NCBI GenBank assembly: GCA_003020945.1
Contig: PXRU01000003.1
Coordinates: forward strand, 72,947-136,946
Origin: Halobacteriales archaeon QS_6_71_20
GTDB taxonomy: Archaea; Halobacteriota; Halobacteria; Halobacteriales; Haloferacaceae
DNA: 64,000 nt
Reading direction: 5' to 3'
In this document: one piece after another, positions 48,762-56,343 of the stretch
Layout of the letters: every line of letters begins with the position of its first letter
How positions within the stretch are numbered: position 1 is the first letter of the stretch
Made by a program: the position numbers and the translations under genes
Notes under the pieces: generated by a model
The model's database searches: none
Told to the model about the DNA's origin: nothing
Seen by the model: the letters and a program-made list of their open reading frames with translations, nothing else

Positions 48762-49391
48762 ATGTCTACGTCACAATGACATGTTATGGAGCATCACAGT
48801 ACGTGCGGAATACGCAACCCATTCAAGAGGTCCGAACGGGTTCGCCCGTCCCGAACGACGTGGCGCCTCAGCCCGACGCACGGAGCGCGGCCGGTCGCTC
48901 ACCCGCCACGACCGTGCCGCTCGACAGGTCGAGCGCCCGCAGCAGTCGCTCGACGCCGTCCGCCCCCGTCTCGGCAGTCGGACGCGGGACGCCCCGGCCG
49001 TTCGCCAGCTTCGCGGTGATGGCCGGGACGCTCGCCCGCGCGGGCGTGACTCGAAACCCTCCGGTCGACGAGTCGGCGTCGCACCGCCGGTCGTCCGGAA
49101 CCTGCTGAACCGAACCGACGACACCCACCGCTGGCTCGCGTTCGGCCCGCCGCCGGTCGGCACAGCCGAGGGCTTCGGAAGCTACGCCTTGCCGGAAAGG
49201 AGGGATAGCTGCCGGCCGATCGCGGCGGGTTCCGAGCCTGATACCGCAGCGGGGGCATCACACGATTTCTTAACGCCGTCGCCACTGGCAAGTACTGGAC
49301 CGCGACGTGCCTGTTCGTGTACACGTCGAGGCGGGCGGCGAGACTGGCGATAGCTATATCCGGCCGTCACGACCAACTTAGGACCGAACTT

Positions 49392-51897
49392 ATGGACTCC
49401 ACCGAGAGCCTCCCGTCGCGGGCGGACACGGTCATCGTCGGCGCGGGGATCGTCGGCTGTAACGTCGCGTATCAACTGACGAAGCTCGGACGTGAGAACG
49501 TGGTCGTCGTCGACCAGGGTCCGATGCCCACGACCGGCGGCTCCTCGACGCACGCGCCGGGTATCATGTTTCAGACGGCGGAACCGAAGACGCTCAGCCA
49601 GTTCGCGAACTACAGCCGGAAGCTCTACACCGACCTCGAAGGCGCGGACGGCCGACAGGCGTACAACGAGACGGGCGGCATCGAGGTGGCCCGCAGCGAG
49701 GAGCGGATGGCGTTCCTCCAGCGCCGGGTCGAACACGCGAAGGCGTGGGGGATCGAGGACCCGCAGCTGCTCTCGCCCGAGGAGGTCACCGACCACCTCC
49801 CGCTCGTCGACGAGAGCCGGATACTGGGCGGCTACTACTCGCCGACGGACGGGCAGGTGTCCGGCGTCGTGGCGTGTGACGCGCTGGCCCGCGAGGCCAT
49901 CGACCGTGGCGCGACGTTCGTGCCACACACCCGCACCGAGGACGTTCGAACCGAGGGCGGGTCGGTGGAGGGCGTCGTCACCGAGAACGGCACCATCGAG
50001 TGCGACGAGGTGGTCGTGGCGACGAACATCTGGGCGCGTCAACTCGGCGAGAAGCTCGGCGTCCACCTGCCGGTGACGCCGGTCGAACACCAGTACACGA
50101 TGACCGAATCGCTGGATGAACTCGCCGACGGCGCGGTCGACGTGACCGACCACCCGCTGTTCGAGAACTACGAGAACGTCTCCGGCGAGAAGGCGAAACG
50201 GCTGTTGGTCGGGCCCGACCGGCCCATCCTGCGCGACCAGGACAACGCGATGTACTTCCGAACCCACGGCGACTCCTACGGCATCGGCTCGTACAACCAC
50301 GAGCCGGTCGTGCCGGACCCGCAGGAGCTGGGCGGCAACACGGCGGACGGACAGGGGTCGGTCCACGAGTTCACCGAGCAGCACATGAACTCGGCGACCC
50401 ACCCCGACCGCCCGCACAAGCCACCCCGGCAGGCCAGCGACGAACTGCTGCCGGCGACCGCGGGCAAGGAGTTGGAGTTCAGCTACAACGGGATGTTCGC
50501 GGAGTCGCCCAACGGCCTGCCCGTGATGGGCCCGGTGCAGGAGTACGACGGCCTCTGGACGGCCGCGGCCATCTGGGTCACGCACGCCGGCGGCGCGGCG
50601 AAGGCGCTCGCGGAGTGGATGGAGACGGGCGTGCCGAGGCTCGACGACGGGCCGATCGACCTCGCGCACTGTGACGTGAACCGGTTCGACGACCACGAGG
50701 GGAGCTGGGACTTCGCCCGCGACATCGGCGGGGAGGAGTACCGCATCGTCTACAACGTCATGCACCCGAAGTGGGTGTGGACCGAGCAACAGCGGGACAT
50801 CCGGCGCACGCCGATGTATCACACCCACGAGGAGATGGGCGCGGAGCTGTGGGCCGAGGCCGGCTGGGAGGAGCCGCAGTGGTTCGAGTCGAACGCCGAC
50901 CTCGTCGACCGCTACGCCGACCGGATACCCGACCGCGACGGCTGGGAGGGGCAGTACTGGTCGCCGATCGAGGGCGCGGAGGCGCTCCACGTCCGCAACG
51001 CCGTCGGTCTCCACGACATGACCTCGTTCAACAAGATGGAGGTGGTCGGCTCCGAGGCGGGCGCGTTCGTCCAACGACTGTGTACGAACGACATGGACCT
51101 CGACGTCGGCGAGGTGAAGTACACCCTGATGTGCAACGAGGGCGGCGGTGTCCGCGCGGACATCACCGTCACGCGCACCGACGAGAACCGGTACCTCCTC
51201 CTGACGACCGGCCGCGAGGTCGGGAACAACCACGTCGCGTGGGTGCGCGAGCAGTCGCCCGAGGGCGTCGTCGTCACCGACGCGACCTCCAGTCTGGCCG
51301 CGATGGTGTGTACCGGCCCCGACGCGCGGAAGGTGCTCTCGGAGGTGACCGACGTCGATCTCTCCGACGAGGCGTTCCCGTTCTTCACCAGCCAGCAGTT
51401 CTTCGTGAAGAACGTGCCCGTCACGGCGTTGCGGGTCTCGTACGCCGGCGAACTCGGCTGGGAGCTGTACACGCCCTCCGAGTACGGCGAACGGCTCTGG
51501 GAGCACGTCCTCGAAGCCGGCGCGGAGTACGACATCCGGCCGTACGGCAACGGCGCGCTCGACTCGCTGCGCATCGAGAAGGGGTTCCGGCTGTGGGGGA
51601 AAGACCTCCACACGGAACACACGCCCGCCGAGGCCGGTCTCGGCTGGGCCGTCGACATGGACACCGACTTCATCGGCAAGGACGCGCTAGACGGTGCTCG
51701 ACAACCGGCCCGTGTTTACACCCGAGGGTGACGAGTCGCTCGGCTACGTCCACAGCGCGGAGTACGGCTACACGGCGGGTGCCTGCGTCGCCTACACCTA
51801 CCTCCCGCCGGAGTACGCGGAACCAGGCACCGACCTGGAGATCCTCTTCGAGGGCGACCGCTACGCGGCGACGGTGCGCGAGGAGCCGCTCGTGTAA
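49392..51897 (+). pseudogene. DMG/sarcosine dehydrogenase-like FAD/THF protein (paralog 1), frameshifted by an apparent ~60-nt deletion near 51690
   Basis: GAGIVG FAD motif, GGSSTHAPG, GcvT domain; main frame stops at 51731 while the C-terminal domain continues in another frame (51694-51897, ...EEPLV*). Confidence 0.8.
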
Positions 51898-52291
51898 ACT
51901 ACCCCGTCCTACTCGCTCCCTCCCGCCTTGCGGCGGTCGGTCACTCCTTGAGGACGGGGCTTTACCGAAGCGACATTTGCCCCGCGACCTCATGCGGTTC
52001 GAGAGAGCTTCGCTCTCTCGTCGTCACGAAAGGCGCGAAGCGCCTTTCGAACGGCATGGACGCGGCCCGGCTTCCTCCTGCCGTTCCACGGTGGAGGCGG
52101 CGGGTCGGAGCAGTGCTGCGACCCACGCTTCCCGGACCTGTGCCGTGGACTGTCCCGCCGGTTTGATTCCCGGTGTTCTCGCGCTCCATCCCCAAGCGGG
52201 GAACGGGAGTCCACCCCGTTCGCGGTCGTCGTTCCCGAGTATAGGGTGCGACGGCGTTGCCGTCGCACCGCGGGTGCCAGTTTACTCGTGG
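51894..52291 (-). ncRNA. Putative OMEGA (omega/reRNA-like) scaffold; strand inferred
   Basis: Run of perfect hairpins (52000-52020, 52027-52049, 52201-52221, 52245-52269) ending in the RE hairpin with a GCAA loop on minus. Confidence 0.5.
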
Positions 52292-53442
52292 AGAGCGTGT
52301 CATAGAATAGTTCTCGCACCCTTCGAGTGACGATCCGATGAGCGGTAAATACAGGAGGTGTACGTAACAGGCCTGGTCACTCCGTTGACTTAGAAGGTTG
52401 TCTTTGAATGTCGATTGTCACTGGCCGAGCGTCTCGTCTCATGTGTCTGTATCCGAGCGCGATTAGTATTCCAGAGACCGCAGCAACCGGGACAAATGAC
52501 GGGACTGCGGACGGATCGAAGGGCACCACCGTGGCGTTGCCGAACCCGTGAACGAAGCCGGCGTACCACACGTTCTGCGTCAGATAGTAGATGACACCGT
52601 AGGTGATCCCCGGAATTAGGTTCCCCAGGATGATCAACGGGATCGCGGTTGGGGGTACGCCTTCCAGCAATAGCCCGATGGGAATATGCGCGACGCCGAA
52701 CAAGACCGCTCCACCGAGAATCCCGACTGTGGCGGACAGTCCATGCGAGCGAGAACTCACAAGCGCGGTACATTTGTTCTGCACGTATCCCCGGAAGACG
52801 AACTCCTCAGTGAGCCCGTTCGAGACGGTGAGTGTGAGTAGAAACCAGATCGGAACCCAGTACCACGGCATATCGAAGGCAAAGCCGAGTTGTGCGGTCG
52901 CTCCCGTGACGACGAGATATCCCACGCCGACGATGCTAACCCATCCCCAGAGGACTCCGAACGCGACGACCGCGGGCAGGAACGTCGATCTACTGAGGCC
53001 GACAGCGGACGCTGAAACGCCCTCATACCGAAGCACGCCCCAAGTACCAAGAATGAGAATCAGCATGAACGGAAAGCTTAGGATGGCCGACAGATGTTTC
53101 GGATATTCCGACGACTCAGGGCCCAAAACCGCCGTGTGAGCGGTCACCGAGGCAGCCGCGACAATACTCACGAATGAAACGAGCGCAACGAGAGGGACCA
53201 AACTGGGAATGAAACGGAGGTGACGTGGTGATGTGCTCATGCGTCTGTGGTCTCGACAGTAGAGTAATAAAATATTTCGAGGATAGATGAGGAAGCTGTT
53301 AACTTCTGTAATCATCAGCGAGGACCTGCTGGTCACCTCGGAACCCACTACTGGCTTGGTAAGTTCACAATCCCGCGTAACGGTTGATATACTCTGTCTC
53401 GTGTGAAAGGAACTGCTGTGTGAACCCTTCTATGACACGCTC
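52292..53442. mobile_element. TIR-bounded non-autonomous mini-transposon carrying a passenger gene
   Basis: 26-bp TIRs (22/26 match, outer 15 bp perfect: GAGCGTGTCATAGAA) at 52293-52318 and 53417-53442; direct repeat CGTGG at 52287-52291 and 53443-53447. Confidence 0.85.
52377..53240 (-). CDS. CPBP/CAAX-family intramembrane glutamic metalloprotease
   Basis: EEFVFRGY, FGVAH, HGFGN motifs; multi-TM; visibly AT-richer than the flanks. Confidence 0.9.
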   Translation of the reverse strand: MSTSPRHLRFIPSLVPLVALVSFVSIVAAASVTAHTAVLGPESSEYPKHLSAILSFPFMLILILGTWGVLRYEGVSASAVGLSRSTFLPAVVAFGVLWGWVSIVGVGYLVVTGATAQLGFAFDMPWYWVPIWFLLTLTVSNGLTEEFVFRGYVQNKCTALVSSRSHGLSATVGILGGAVLFGVAHIPIGLLLEGVPPTAIPLIILGNLIPGITYGVIYYLTQNVWYAGFVHGFGNATVVPFDPSAVPSFVPVAAVSGILIALGYRHMRRDARPVTIDIQRQPSKSTE

Positions 53443-53790
53443 CGTGGCACCTACTATCCCGAACTTACACCGGGGTAGTAGTGTTCAGAAAATAGCCGGA
53501 AGAAAGCTAATTCTTTCGATACCGACGGTTGCCCGGATGATGACGGCGATCCCTCTCCTCCCTACTCGCGCCTTCGGCGCTCGTTGAGGAAGGAGGCTCC
53601 TCGCGTATGAACGCTGAGTCGTATCGCCCGCCTGTCAGGCTGTGGGCGTGGGCGGGCGGTCGCGGGCGTGACACCGCGACGGATGGCTTTCGGACGAAAC
53701 GCCACGTAGAACAGTTCTCGACGCAGTTTTCGGTGATTCGACACCCGCTTTACCGGTGTATTTATCCCCGCGACAACCGCGGAACGTGCC

Positions 53791-56343
53791 ATGAGCGGTG
53801 GAAAACTCCCTACGAAGGCGGAGACGGTGGTCATCGGTGCCGGCGCCGTCGGCTGTAGCGTCGCCTACCATCTGACCGAACTCGGCGCGGAGGACGTGGT
53901 CGTCGTCGATCAGGGACCGCTCCCGGTCACGGGCGGGTCGTCCGTCCACGCGCCGGGTATCGTGTTCCAGACGTCCCCCTCGAAGATACAGACGAAGGCC
54001 GCCTACTACACCAGTCGGCTGCTGTCGGACGCCGGCGTGTACGACGAGGTCGGCGGCATCGAGGTCGCCCGCAGCGAGGAGCGGATGGACTTCCTCCGCC
54101 GGCGCGTGGAGTGGGCGACGGCCTACGGCCTACCGGAGCCACAGCTGCTCTCGCCGGAGGAGGTCACCGACCGCCTCCCGATGGTCGACGAGTCGGAGAT
54201 ACTCGGCGGCTACTACTCGCCGACGGACGGCCGCGTCGACGGCATCGGCGCGCTCCAGTGGTACATGGAGCAGTCGCCGGCCGCCTTCTACGGAGAGACG
54301 GAGGTCGAGGACATCGACGTGGCGGGCGGCGAGGTGAACGCGATCGAGACCGACCGTGGACGCATCGACTGCGAACGGTGCGTCATCGCCACCAACAACT
54401 GGGGCTACCAGACCGGGCAGCTGGCGGGACTCGATCTACCCATCGCGCCGGTCGAACACCAGTACGTCGTCACGGAGCCGATGGACGAGCTCGCGGGGTT
54501 CGACACTTCCGTCGGCGACAACACAACCGGATTGGACGTGCCCGGCGACCGCTCCATCGCCGAGTACATGAGCGAGGGGCCGACGCTCCCCGTCGGCCGG
54601 GACCAGGACCACTCGCTGTACTTCCGCAACCACGGCGACGCGCTCGGCATGGGGTCGTACAACCACGAGACGCTCTCGGTCGACCCCGAAGCGATGGGGA
54701 CGAACAGCGAGCAGCGACAGGCCTCCGTCAGGGGGTTCTCGCGGGAGCACTGGGAGCGGCCCACCCACCGCGGCCGCGACAAGTCCGCCAAGCGGGCGTT
54801 CGACGAACTCCTCCCGGCCACCGAGGACGTCGAGTACGAGGCGACGGAGAACGGCATCTTCGTGTTCACGCCCGACGGGATGCCCGCCGTCGGCCCGACC
54901 GCGGCCGTCGACGGGCTGTGGACAGGGCTCGCCGTCTGGTGGACCCACTCGGGCGGCTACGGTCGCATCCTCGCCGAGTGGATGGAGAACGGCGTCCCGC
55001 GGCTCCCCTCGGGACCGGTGGACACGGGCGGCATCCACGTCCGCCGGTTCGGCCCCCACGCCGGCGAGAAGGACTACTTCGTCGACCGCGGGGGGAGACG
55101 CTACGAGCAGGTGTACAGCATCGTCGAGCCGCGCTGGCAGCCCGACGACCACCGCGGCCTCCGGACGAGTCCGTTCTACCACCGTCAACAGGAGTTGGGC
55201 GCGGAGTTCTATCAGGCGGGCGGCTGGGAGTCGCCGCAGTGGTACGAGTCGAACGCCGACCTCGTCGACCGCTACGCGAACCGGATCCCCGAACAGGACG
55301 GCTGGCAGGCGATCAACCGCTCGGAGATCGAGGCGGCCGAACATCTCCACACCCGCGAGCAGGTCTCGATGTTCGACATGACCACGTTCTCCTCGATCAT
55401 GGTGGAGGGGCCGGACGCGGAGGCGTATCTCCAGCGGGTCTGCTCGAACGACGTGGCCATCGACGAGGGGCAGGTGCGCTACTCGCTGCTGTTGAACGAG
55501 GGCGGCGGCATCCTCGCGGACGTGACGGTCGTCCGGCTGGACGACGAGCGGTACATGATGACGACCGGCGGCGGCAACTCGCCGGGCATCCACGGCGGCT
55601 GGCTGGCCGACCACGCCCCCGAGACCGTCTCCGTCCACGTCGAGGAAGGCGCGAAGTCGACCATCGGGTTGTGGGGGCCGAAGTCGCGGCTCCTGCTCCA
55701 GCGGTGTACGGACGCCGACGTGACGAACGAGGGGTTCCCGTACTTCACGGCGAAGCGGATCTACGTCGGCGAGGTGCCGGTCGTCGCGCTCCGTGTCTCC
55801 TACGTGGGTGAACTCGGCTGGGAGCTGTGGGCCCCGACCGAGTACGGCCGGCGGCTCTGGGACACCCTCTGGGAGGCGGGGCAGGACCTCGACGTGCGGC
55901 CGATGGGCGGCGGCGCGCTGAGTTCGATGCGGCTCGAGAAGGGGTTCCGGCTGTGGGGGACGGATATCGACACGGACGCCAACCCCTTCGAGGCCGGTCT
56001 CCCCTTCGCCGTCGACATGGACACCGACTTCGTCGGCAAGGACGCGCTGGAGGCCGCCCGCGCCGACGGGGTCGACAGCCGAGCGACGCCGCTCACGCTC
56101 GACAACTCGACCGACATCATGCTGAGTGGCCGACCCGTCCTGAAAGACGGCGAGGCCATCGGCTACGTGCAGGCCGGGAACTACGGCTACACGATCGGCG
56201 AATCCATCGCGTACACCTACGTGCCGAGCGAGCACGCCGAGGCCGGCACCTCGGTCCGGATACGGTGTGAGGGCGAGACGTATGACGCGACGGTTCGGGA
56301 CGAGCCGCTGTTCGACCCCGGCCGTGAGAAGATCCTTCGATGA
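53791..56343 (+). CDS. DMG/sarcosine dehydrogenase-like FAD/THF protein (paralog 2, intact)
   Basis: GAGAVG, GGSSVHAPG, FDMTTFS, RVSYVGELGWE, RLEKGFRLWG, EPLFDP. Confidence 0.93.
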   Translation: MSGGKLPTKAETVVIGAGAVGCSVAYHLTELGAEDVVVVDQGPLPVTGGSSVHAPGIVFQTSPSKIQTKAAYYTSRLLSDAGVYDEVGGIEVARSEERMDFLRRRVEWATAYGLPEPQLLSPEEVTDRLPMVDESEILGGYYSPTDGRVDGIGALQWYMEQSPAAFYGETEVEDIDVAGGEVNAIETDRGRIDCERCVIATNNWGYQTGQLAGLDLPIAPVEHQYVVTEPMDELAGFDTSVGDNTTGLDVPGDRSIAEYMSEGPTLPVGRDQDHSLYFRNHGDALGMGSYNHETLSVDPEAMGTNSEQRQASVRGFSREHWERPTHRGRDKSAKRAFDELLPATEDVEYEATENGIFVFTPDGMPAVGPTAAVDGLWTGLAVWWTHSGGYGRILAEWMENGVPRLPSGPVDTGGIHVRRFGPHAGEKDYFVDRGGRRYEQVYSIVEPRWQPDDHRGLRTSPFYHRQQELGAEFYQAGGWESPQWYESNADLVDRYANRIPEQDGWQAINRSEIEAAEHLHTREQVSMFDMTTFSSIMVEGPDAEAYLQRVCSNDVAIDEGQVRYSLLLNEGGGILADVTVVRLDDERYMMTTGGGNSPGIHGGWLADHAPETVSVHVEEGAKSTIGLWGPKSRLLLQRCTDADVTNEGFPYFTAKRIYVGEVPVVALRVSYVGELGWELWAPTEYGRRLWDTLWEAGQDLDVRPMGGGALSSMRLEKGFRLWGTDIDTDANPFEAGLPFAVDMDTDFVGKDALEAARADGVDSRATPLTLDNSTDIMLSGRPVLKDGEAIGYVQAGNYGYTIGESIAYTYVPSEHAEAGTSVRIRCEGETYDATVRDEPLFDPGREKILR

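Follow-up and report, generated by a model that had tools for sequence, protein, structure and literature searches.

The locus and its features

The window analysed here is a 64,000-nt stretch of the genome of the Halobacteriales archaeon QS_6_71_20 (PXRU01000003.1; source assembly of 2.65 Mb in 32 contigs, 94% complete), and coordinates without a contig name are window positions. At 52293–53442 it contains a 1150-bp element, referred to here as the cassette, in which one gene for a predicted CPBP/Rce1-like glutamic intramembrane protease lies between terminal inverted repeats (TIRs). The cassette interrupts a second, outer repeat element of ~510 bp, located at the stop codon of a DAO-GcvT gene. 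The evidence presented below makes it very probable that the cassette is a mobile insertion cassette (MIC) belonging to the ISH11/ISNpe2 group of IS5-family insertion sequences (ISs). Its features are as follows.

52287–52291, read directly: target duplication, left copy CGTGG, followed by an extra A at 52292
52293–52318, plus strand: terminal inverted repeat, end A, with tip GAGCGTGTCATAGAA
52293–52349: IS-derived shell, end A, ~57 bp, with no counterpart in cassette-free homologues (alignment with L142–L144)
52350–53372, minus strand: captured segment, comprising the CPBP gene, ~130 bp upstream and ~25 bp downstream
52377–53240, minus strand (53240 to 52377): CPBP/Rce1-like glutamic intramembrane protease gene, 287 aa, PF02517
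53265–53272, minus strand (gene strand): TATA-like box TTTTATTA, 25–32 nt upstream of the ATG
53373–53442: IS-derived shell, end B, ~70 bp, with subterminal CACAGCAGTTC-TTTCA motif
53417–53442, minus strand: terminal inverted repeat, end B
53443–53447: target duplication, right copy CGTGG

Over their 26 nt the TIRs pair at 22 positions (85%), and the outer 15 nt of both ends are perfect copies of GAGCGTGTCATAGAA. This string occurs in the window at the two cassette tips only, where 0.06 sites are expected by chance, and a search of the whole assembly adds just one match, at a solo site that differs at one position. Across the junctions the sequence runs ...ACTCGTGG-A, then the element, then CGTGG-CACC..., and the duplication can be described either as 5 bp plus one base or as the 6-bp string CGTGGC with one change, the empty site being identical either way. 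The GC content of the cassette is 0.553, compared with 0.696 for the window. The protease gene is the sole credible gene between the repeats, and no transposase was found inside the cassette either in a survey of open reading frames (ORFs) or by tblastn with ISH11-type and ISH3-like transposases. A first-pass annotation made from the sequence alone had described TIRs, a (C)GTGG duplication and an AT-richer interior without a transposase, and had proposed a non-autonomous element carrying a single foreign CPBP gene; the data above bear out this description, as do the PF02517 match of the gene and its low third-codon GC content.

Cognate insertion sequences

Among 401 Halobacteriales genomes, 211 contain the end motif AGNGTGTCATAGAA, and tens of copies per genome are frequent, whereas the reversed control motif gives only scattered single matches. 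Pairs of this motif ~1067–1070 bp apart flank one DDE_Tnp_1 transposase of 330–335 aa, with duplications of 7–8 bp, and the same transposase occurs on annotated plasmids under the labels IS5-like ISH11, ISHma6, ISNpe17 or ISHla6. Both ends were extracted from 28 of 30 full-length autonomous loci; most of these ends are GAGGGTGTCATAGAA, the duplications across the set are 5–10 bp, and autonomous lengths in all are ~1063–1070 bp. Three autonomous loci (L181, L182, and L184) have exactly GAGCGTGTCATAGAA at both ends, and relatives of L184 are annotated as ISNpe2 or ISHti7 in public records. The 15-nt tips of the cassette are identical to those of the ISNpe2-like copies and one base off those of ISH11 and ISHma6. 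The autonomous relative that the first-pass annotation had expected for these repeats is thereby identified as the ISNpe2/ISH11 group of the IS5 family.

The non-autonomous elements of this class also resemble the cassette at the level of its ends. End A shares its first 23 nt, without a mismatch, with the left end of a 405-bp miniature inverted-repeat transposable element (MITE) of the ISH11 class, and the subterminal CACAGCAGTTC-TTTCA motif of end B recurs in other non-autonomous ISH11-class elements. A pattern scan with end A returned only small MITEs of 151–405 bp, in Halorubrum, Haloferacaceae, and Natrialbaceae genomes; the surroundings of ten GAGCGTG-type ends, solo or unpaired, were searched for an autonomous IS and yielded mostly solo ends or short MITEs, and a blastn search of the plasmid collection with the cassette returned no match.

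A 558-aa ISH3-like DDE transposase located beside a solo end-repeat in another genome (G029) was considered as the cognate enzyme and rejected: 30 full-length relatives of this transposase lack the repeat, and it is therefore unrelated to the cassette ends.

Two other low-GC elements with decayed ISH11-type ends are present in the source genome, at contig 20:5403–6318 and contig 13:14643–15344, with GC contents of 0.51 and 0.57 and ORFs of 220 aa and 152/162 aa, respectively. Neither a Pfam match for these ORFs nor a clear duplication was found. The presence of these elements indicates that the IS family was once active in this genome.

A second copy at another site

The closest relative of the protease (97% protein identity) is encoded on a 1472-bp metagenome contig, L141, which is 96.6% identical to window positions 52295–53442 over 1148 bp, with the homology ending exactly at both repeat tips. 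The copy on L141 has unrelated flanks and its own 5-bp duplication, ATTCT, indicating that the unit moved as a whole.

In the coding part the two copies differ at 26 of 864 positions (3.0%), with 16 synonymous and 10 non-synonymous codon changes and a ratio of non-synonymous to synonymous substitution rates (dN/dS) of roughly 0.2, and in the non-coding part they differ at 14 of 286 positions (4.9%). The distribution of codon changes together with the higher non-coding divergence indicates that purifying selection has acted on the protease gene during its time in the cassette.

The outer element and its empty sites

The features of the interrupted outer element are as follows.

51894–52291, minus strand: outer element, part towards its right end
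53448–53617, minus strand: outer element, remainder beyond the cassette
52273–52291: interrupted hairpin, portion left of the cassette, with the 5' arm (GGTGCCA), the loop and the initial 3 nt of the 3' arm
53448–53451: rest of the 3' arm of the split hairpin
51996–52053: 58-bp double-hairpin mini-insertion, predicted fold energy −32 kcal/mol

About 20 copies of the outer element are found in other Haloferacaceae genomes, all of them collinear across the cassette junction. The rejoined flanks of the cassette read GGTGCCA-N9-TGGCACC, and 14 uninterrupted outer copies read at the junction have the same hairpin in the form GGAGCCA-N9-TGGCTCC. The first-pass annotation had fixed the insertion point by the 7-bp hairpin that is restored when the cassette is removed; the uninterrupted copies confirm this placement, which is strengthened by compensatory changes in the hairpin arms among the copies (e.g., GGAGCCA/TGGCTCC and GGCGTCG/CGACGCC). 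At the level of the whole nested block (51894–53617), a relative that is 94–96% identical, the metagenome-assembled genome QH_7_66_36, has 12 bp instead (L260:2816–2827), and the block is also absent at the syntenic locus of Halobaculum gomorrense.

In 4 of 4 copies checked, the outer repeat starts at the TAA stop codon of the upstream gene, this gene being the DAO-GcvT gene, a biotin ligase gene, a 369-aa ORF, and a TnpB-like ORF, respectively. The outer element is plausibly a transposase-less (TnpB-less) derivative of an IS200/IS605-type element with a putative omega-type RNA on its minus strand. Its terminal hairpin, ending ...GGGGTAGTTTAC on the minus strand, matches the one that closes a TnpB element on contig 4 at its 3' side, where a resident gene for a 435-aa TnpB (L108:1283–2670) is followed by a terminal hairpin and GTAGTTTAC on the sense strand. 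A weak match to the Rfam family DUF3800-X on the minus strand (51895–51964) probably corresponds to this terminal hairpin. The 58-bp mini-insertion is absent from all ~20 other outer copies and occurs once in the source genome.

Copies of the 58-bp mini-element, ~80–91% identical, are present at several sites in other Halobaculum genomes.

The protease gene

The product of the gene matches PF02517 with 59.4 bits against a cut-off of 22.4 (E 4e-16). The catalytic motifs of the family, EExxxR (E145, E146, R150), FxxxH (F181, H185), and HxxxN (H231, N235), are all intact, and their residues are invariant across an alignment of 14 homologues. NCBIfam models of the myxosortase type also match, all below their cut-offs, and a confident AlphaFold2 model of the protein is all-helical and multi-pass with a predicted local distance difference test (pLDDT) value of 86. 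The predicted family assignment rests on the Pfam match and the motifs.

The TATA-like box is kept in the copy on L141, and an AT-rich stretch is found at the equivalent place in the cassette-free homologue L142. A distance of 25–32 nt upstream of the start codon is the TATA-box spacing expected for leaderless haloarchaeal mRNA, and with this spacing the protease mRNA would have no leader or almost none. Given an intact gene that purifying selection has maintained since the divergence of the cassette copies, the protease is probably expressed and useful. In bacteria, CPBP proteins act in immunity and resistance, and by analogy a role of this kind, for instance against halocins or viruses, might fit the predicted protease. 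Inspection of the gene neighbourhoods of chromosomal homologues with 64–65% identity revealed no toxin or immunity partner beside them and no pointer to a substrate; these homologues lie in ordinary housekeeping neighbourhoods, one by shikimate-pathway genes and another by tRNA-editing and YdjM genes.

Origin of the cargo

Several observations indicate that the cargo is foreign in origin. Third-codon GC content is 0.66 in the protease gene and 0.93 in the neighbouring gene. No protein match to the protease was detected in five sampled genomes of the same genus (E ≤ 1e-10), no DNA match to the gene was detected in thirteen same-genus genomes, and the best protease match among 401 genomes of the order is 60%. 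The first-pass annotation had treated the gene as foreign rather than as a resident gene standing without TIRs at the same place in relatives, and the protease is indeed missing at the syntenic locus of close relatives. Metagenome relatives of the captured segment, 84–87% identical, lack the end-repeats, and their homology to the cassette runs from ~52350 to 53372, a span that takes in the gene together with ~130 bp on its upstream side and ~25 bp on its downstream side. This limit of homology leaves the outer ~57 and ~70 bp as an IS-derived shell.

Comparison with known systems

MICs are known from bacteria; one example, from which the concept is taken here, is IS231-MIC231 of Bacillus cereus (De Palmenaer et al., 2004, as cited in PMC3129680), another the qnrS2 MIC on Aeromonas plasmids (PMC5444012). 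The cassette described here has ends homologous to those of an IS, no transposase, an unrelated passenger gene, a duplication like that of its cognate ISs, and an occurrence at more than one site. The duplications are comparable throughout: 5 bp (CGTGG, with the extra base) in the window, 5 bp (ATTCT) on L141, and 5–10 bp for the cognate ISs. The cassette thus has in common with IS231-MIC231 and the qnrS2 MIC the IS-type ends, the missing transposase, the one passenger gene, and the target duplication, to which a presumed mobilization in trans and shells with varying cargo would be added, the modularity of two sister elements (L052 and L053, described below) being the counterpart of that seen with IS231-MIC231. 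Unlike these examples, it resides in an archaeal host, its ends are of the IS5 family (ISH11/ISNpe2) and not of IS231 of the IS4 family, and its predicted cargo is a CPBP protease. A limited literature search found no report of an archaeal MIC.

Close non-autonomous relatives are the ISH11-class MITEs of Halobacterium salinarum (MITEHsal2, 3, 11, and 14), which are active in populations and generate 7-bp duplications (Pfeiffer et al., 2019, PMC7002104). They share with the cassette the class of end-repeat, the non-autonomous state, and short duplications, and the 405-bp relative contains the first 23 nt of end A; however, such MITEs are ~400 bp long, whereas the cassette extends over 1150 bp around a full-size gene with a putative promoter. 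The label of MITE-like mini-transposon given in the first-pass annotation therefore holds for a non-autonomous element bounded by TIRs and not for a MITE, since the unit is 1150 bp long and contains a 287-aa gene. The autonomous elements ISNpe2, ISHti7, ISH11, and ISHma6 resemble the cassette in their 15-nt tips (identical or one base off), their similar length (~1.07 kb), and their duplications of 5–10 bp, but encode a DDE transposase of 330–344 aa, which is missing from the cassette, whose interior is unrelated. In a transporter IS (Siguier et al., 2009, as cited in PMC3129680), the transposase is kept next to the passenger gene. Although the cassette is likewise an IS-bounded unit with a passenger gene, it contains no transposase, and the earlier description of it as a transporter element is for this reason set aside.

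Proposed history and alternatives

In the history that appears best to accommodate these observations, a ~510-bp transposase-less IS200/IS605-type repeat would have inserted first, at the stop codon of the DAO-GcvT gene, and the cassette would then have landed in the loop and 3' arm of the conserved hairpin of this outer repeat. The cassette itself consists of two IS-derived ends (~57 and ~70 bp) whose repeats are presumed to bind transposase, enclosing ~1 kb of captured foreign DNA that brings a complete CPBP gene and its own AT-rich promoter region. Movement would need the cognate DDE transposase (330–344 aa), supplied in trans by an autonomous relative; cleavage by this enzyme at the repeat tips, followed by insertion of the unit through a short staggered cut, would give the 5–6-bp duplication seen here. 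The anatomy of the cassette, its cognate IS family, the second copy elsewhere, the empty sites, and the foreign origin are shown by the data above, and movement in trans, use of the putative promoter, and proteolytic activity of the product are inferred. The three-level nesting at this locus orders the insertion events in time.

A number of observations weigh against this reading. The register of the duplication is imperfect, with the extra A at 52292 beside the left tip. Just two copies of the protease cassette are known, the second on a metagenome contig of ~1.5 kb, and exact-pattern scans for end B in the genome and metagenome contig collections returned nothing further. For the predicted protease, neither a Foldseek comparison of the model with the PDB (E ≤ 0.001) nor a profile search against PDB sequences gave a significant match. 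An ISH11-type transposase was not found by tblastn anywhere in the source assembly, with its 94% completeness and 32 contigs, and the cassette is therefore probably now stranded in this genome.

The irregular duplication might be taken to mean that the TIRs match by chance, or that two unrelated solo IS ends happen to surround an acquired gene that never transposed whole, and solo ISH11-type ends are in fact common in haloarchaeal genomes. This explanation is scarcely credible given that the copy on L141 is bounded by the same ends, with homology that stops at the tips and a duplication of its own, and that ~14–20 outer-element copies provide precise empty sites. A weightier alternative, although a doubtful one, is that the cassette, the outer element, and the 58-bp insert were combined in a donor and arrived as one 1.7-kb unit, by IS200/IS605 machinery or by recombination after gene transfer. 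The single copy of each of the three components in the source genome, the missing ISH11-type transposase, and the absence of the whole block from the 94–96% identical relative are all consistent with such an arrival, but no other searched genome has an outer copy bearing the cassette, and the decayed ISH11-type elements testify to past activity of the IS family in the source genome itself. Arrival as a composite would alter the place of the insertion event and not the identity of the cassette.

The orientation of the protease gene, which points into the outer element and had led the first-pass annotation to propose read-through, raises a separate question, namely whether its transcript reads out of end A into the outer minus strand and supplies the precursor of an orphan omega RNA, with a guide just beyond 51894, that a TnpB encoded elsewhere uses. 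From the stop codon at 52377 to 51894 there is no hairpin followed by a T run and no T run longer than 3, in a terminator scan of bacterial design; the sense strand of the contig 4 TnpB element ends with the same terminal hairpin (...GGGGTAGTTTAC) as the minus strand at 51894, where the weak Rfam structured-RNA match also lies, and four TnpB-like genes are present in the source genome. Nevertheless, such a role is improbable, as the 58-nt double hairpin, absent from ~20 other copies, breaks the putative scaffold at a distance of ~100 nt from its end, a conserved hairpin of the outer element was disrupted when the cassette inserted, and beyond the ~60-nt terminal hairpin the outer element has no similarity to any TnpB locus in the genome. 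Read-through feeding an omega RNA would thus be unlikely to matter. In an extended form of the idea, which is very improbable, the cassette promoter would revive the orphan omega RNA, whose guide would match the unoccupied allele, and resident TnpB would cut genomes without the block; functional nesting of this kind, if true, would favour the joint retention or spread of both elements.

Sister cassettes and related MITEs

As in this probable MIC, single genes, although different ones, are found in several other non-autonomous elements bounded by ISH11-type ends, and most of these elements are flanked by duplications. Their cargoes are as follows.

269-aa proteasome-like protein; 8-bp duplication
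202-aa protein; 9-bp duplication
185-aa membrane protein
HD-domain hydrolase
ArsN1/PAT-type acetyltransferase; 8-bp duplication
HalOD1 protein; 6-bp duplication

Two of these sister elements, L052 (G256:C9) and L053 (G414:C11), have common shell ends of ~70–85 nt each and a common left flank, and their interiors are unrelated, one encoding the HD hydrolase and the other the ArsN1/PAT acetyltransferase. Cargo appears to have been exchanged within a constant shell in this pair.

With its clean empty sites and its second copy, the locus indicates that, beyond non-coding MITEs, the ISH11/ISNpe2 group yields shells that would ferry single genes with putative promoters between genera, with a cargo range that includes a membrane protease, an arsinothricin/phosphinothricin-type acetyltransferase, an HD hydrolase, and small regulators. 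This would constitute a simple and under-annotated route of archaeal gene transfer, in which annotation would show the transferred genes as ordinary chromosomal genes. No new mechanism is revealed. The MIC type is already known from bacteria, and ISH11-class MITEs are known from Halobacterium.

The 405-bp MITE that shares its end with end A is located at L008:1502–1906 on a plasmid of Halalkaliarchaeum sp. AArc-CO, with four copies in that genome, and is 81–89% conserved on plasmids of Halorientalis, Halorhabdus, Halobacterium salinarum DSM 3754, and Natrinema. Several plasmid records annotate it as a CopG-type ribbon-helix-helix protein, and for this reason the MITE may be coding too.

Genes adjoining the nested block

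The DAO-GcvT gene at whose stop codon the outer element lies (49317–51897) has an 80-bp deletion near ~51696 relative to two relatives, which shifts the frame such that ORF 51694–51897 is out of frame with ORF 49317–51731; this suggests a pseudogene or, alternatively, an assembly error. It is one of two tandem paralogous DAO-GcvT (dimethylglycine-oxidase-like) genes, 49317–51897 and 53791–56343 (~67–69% DNA identity; L082), and this tandem arrangement is conserved in Halobaculum gomorrense.

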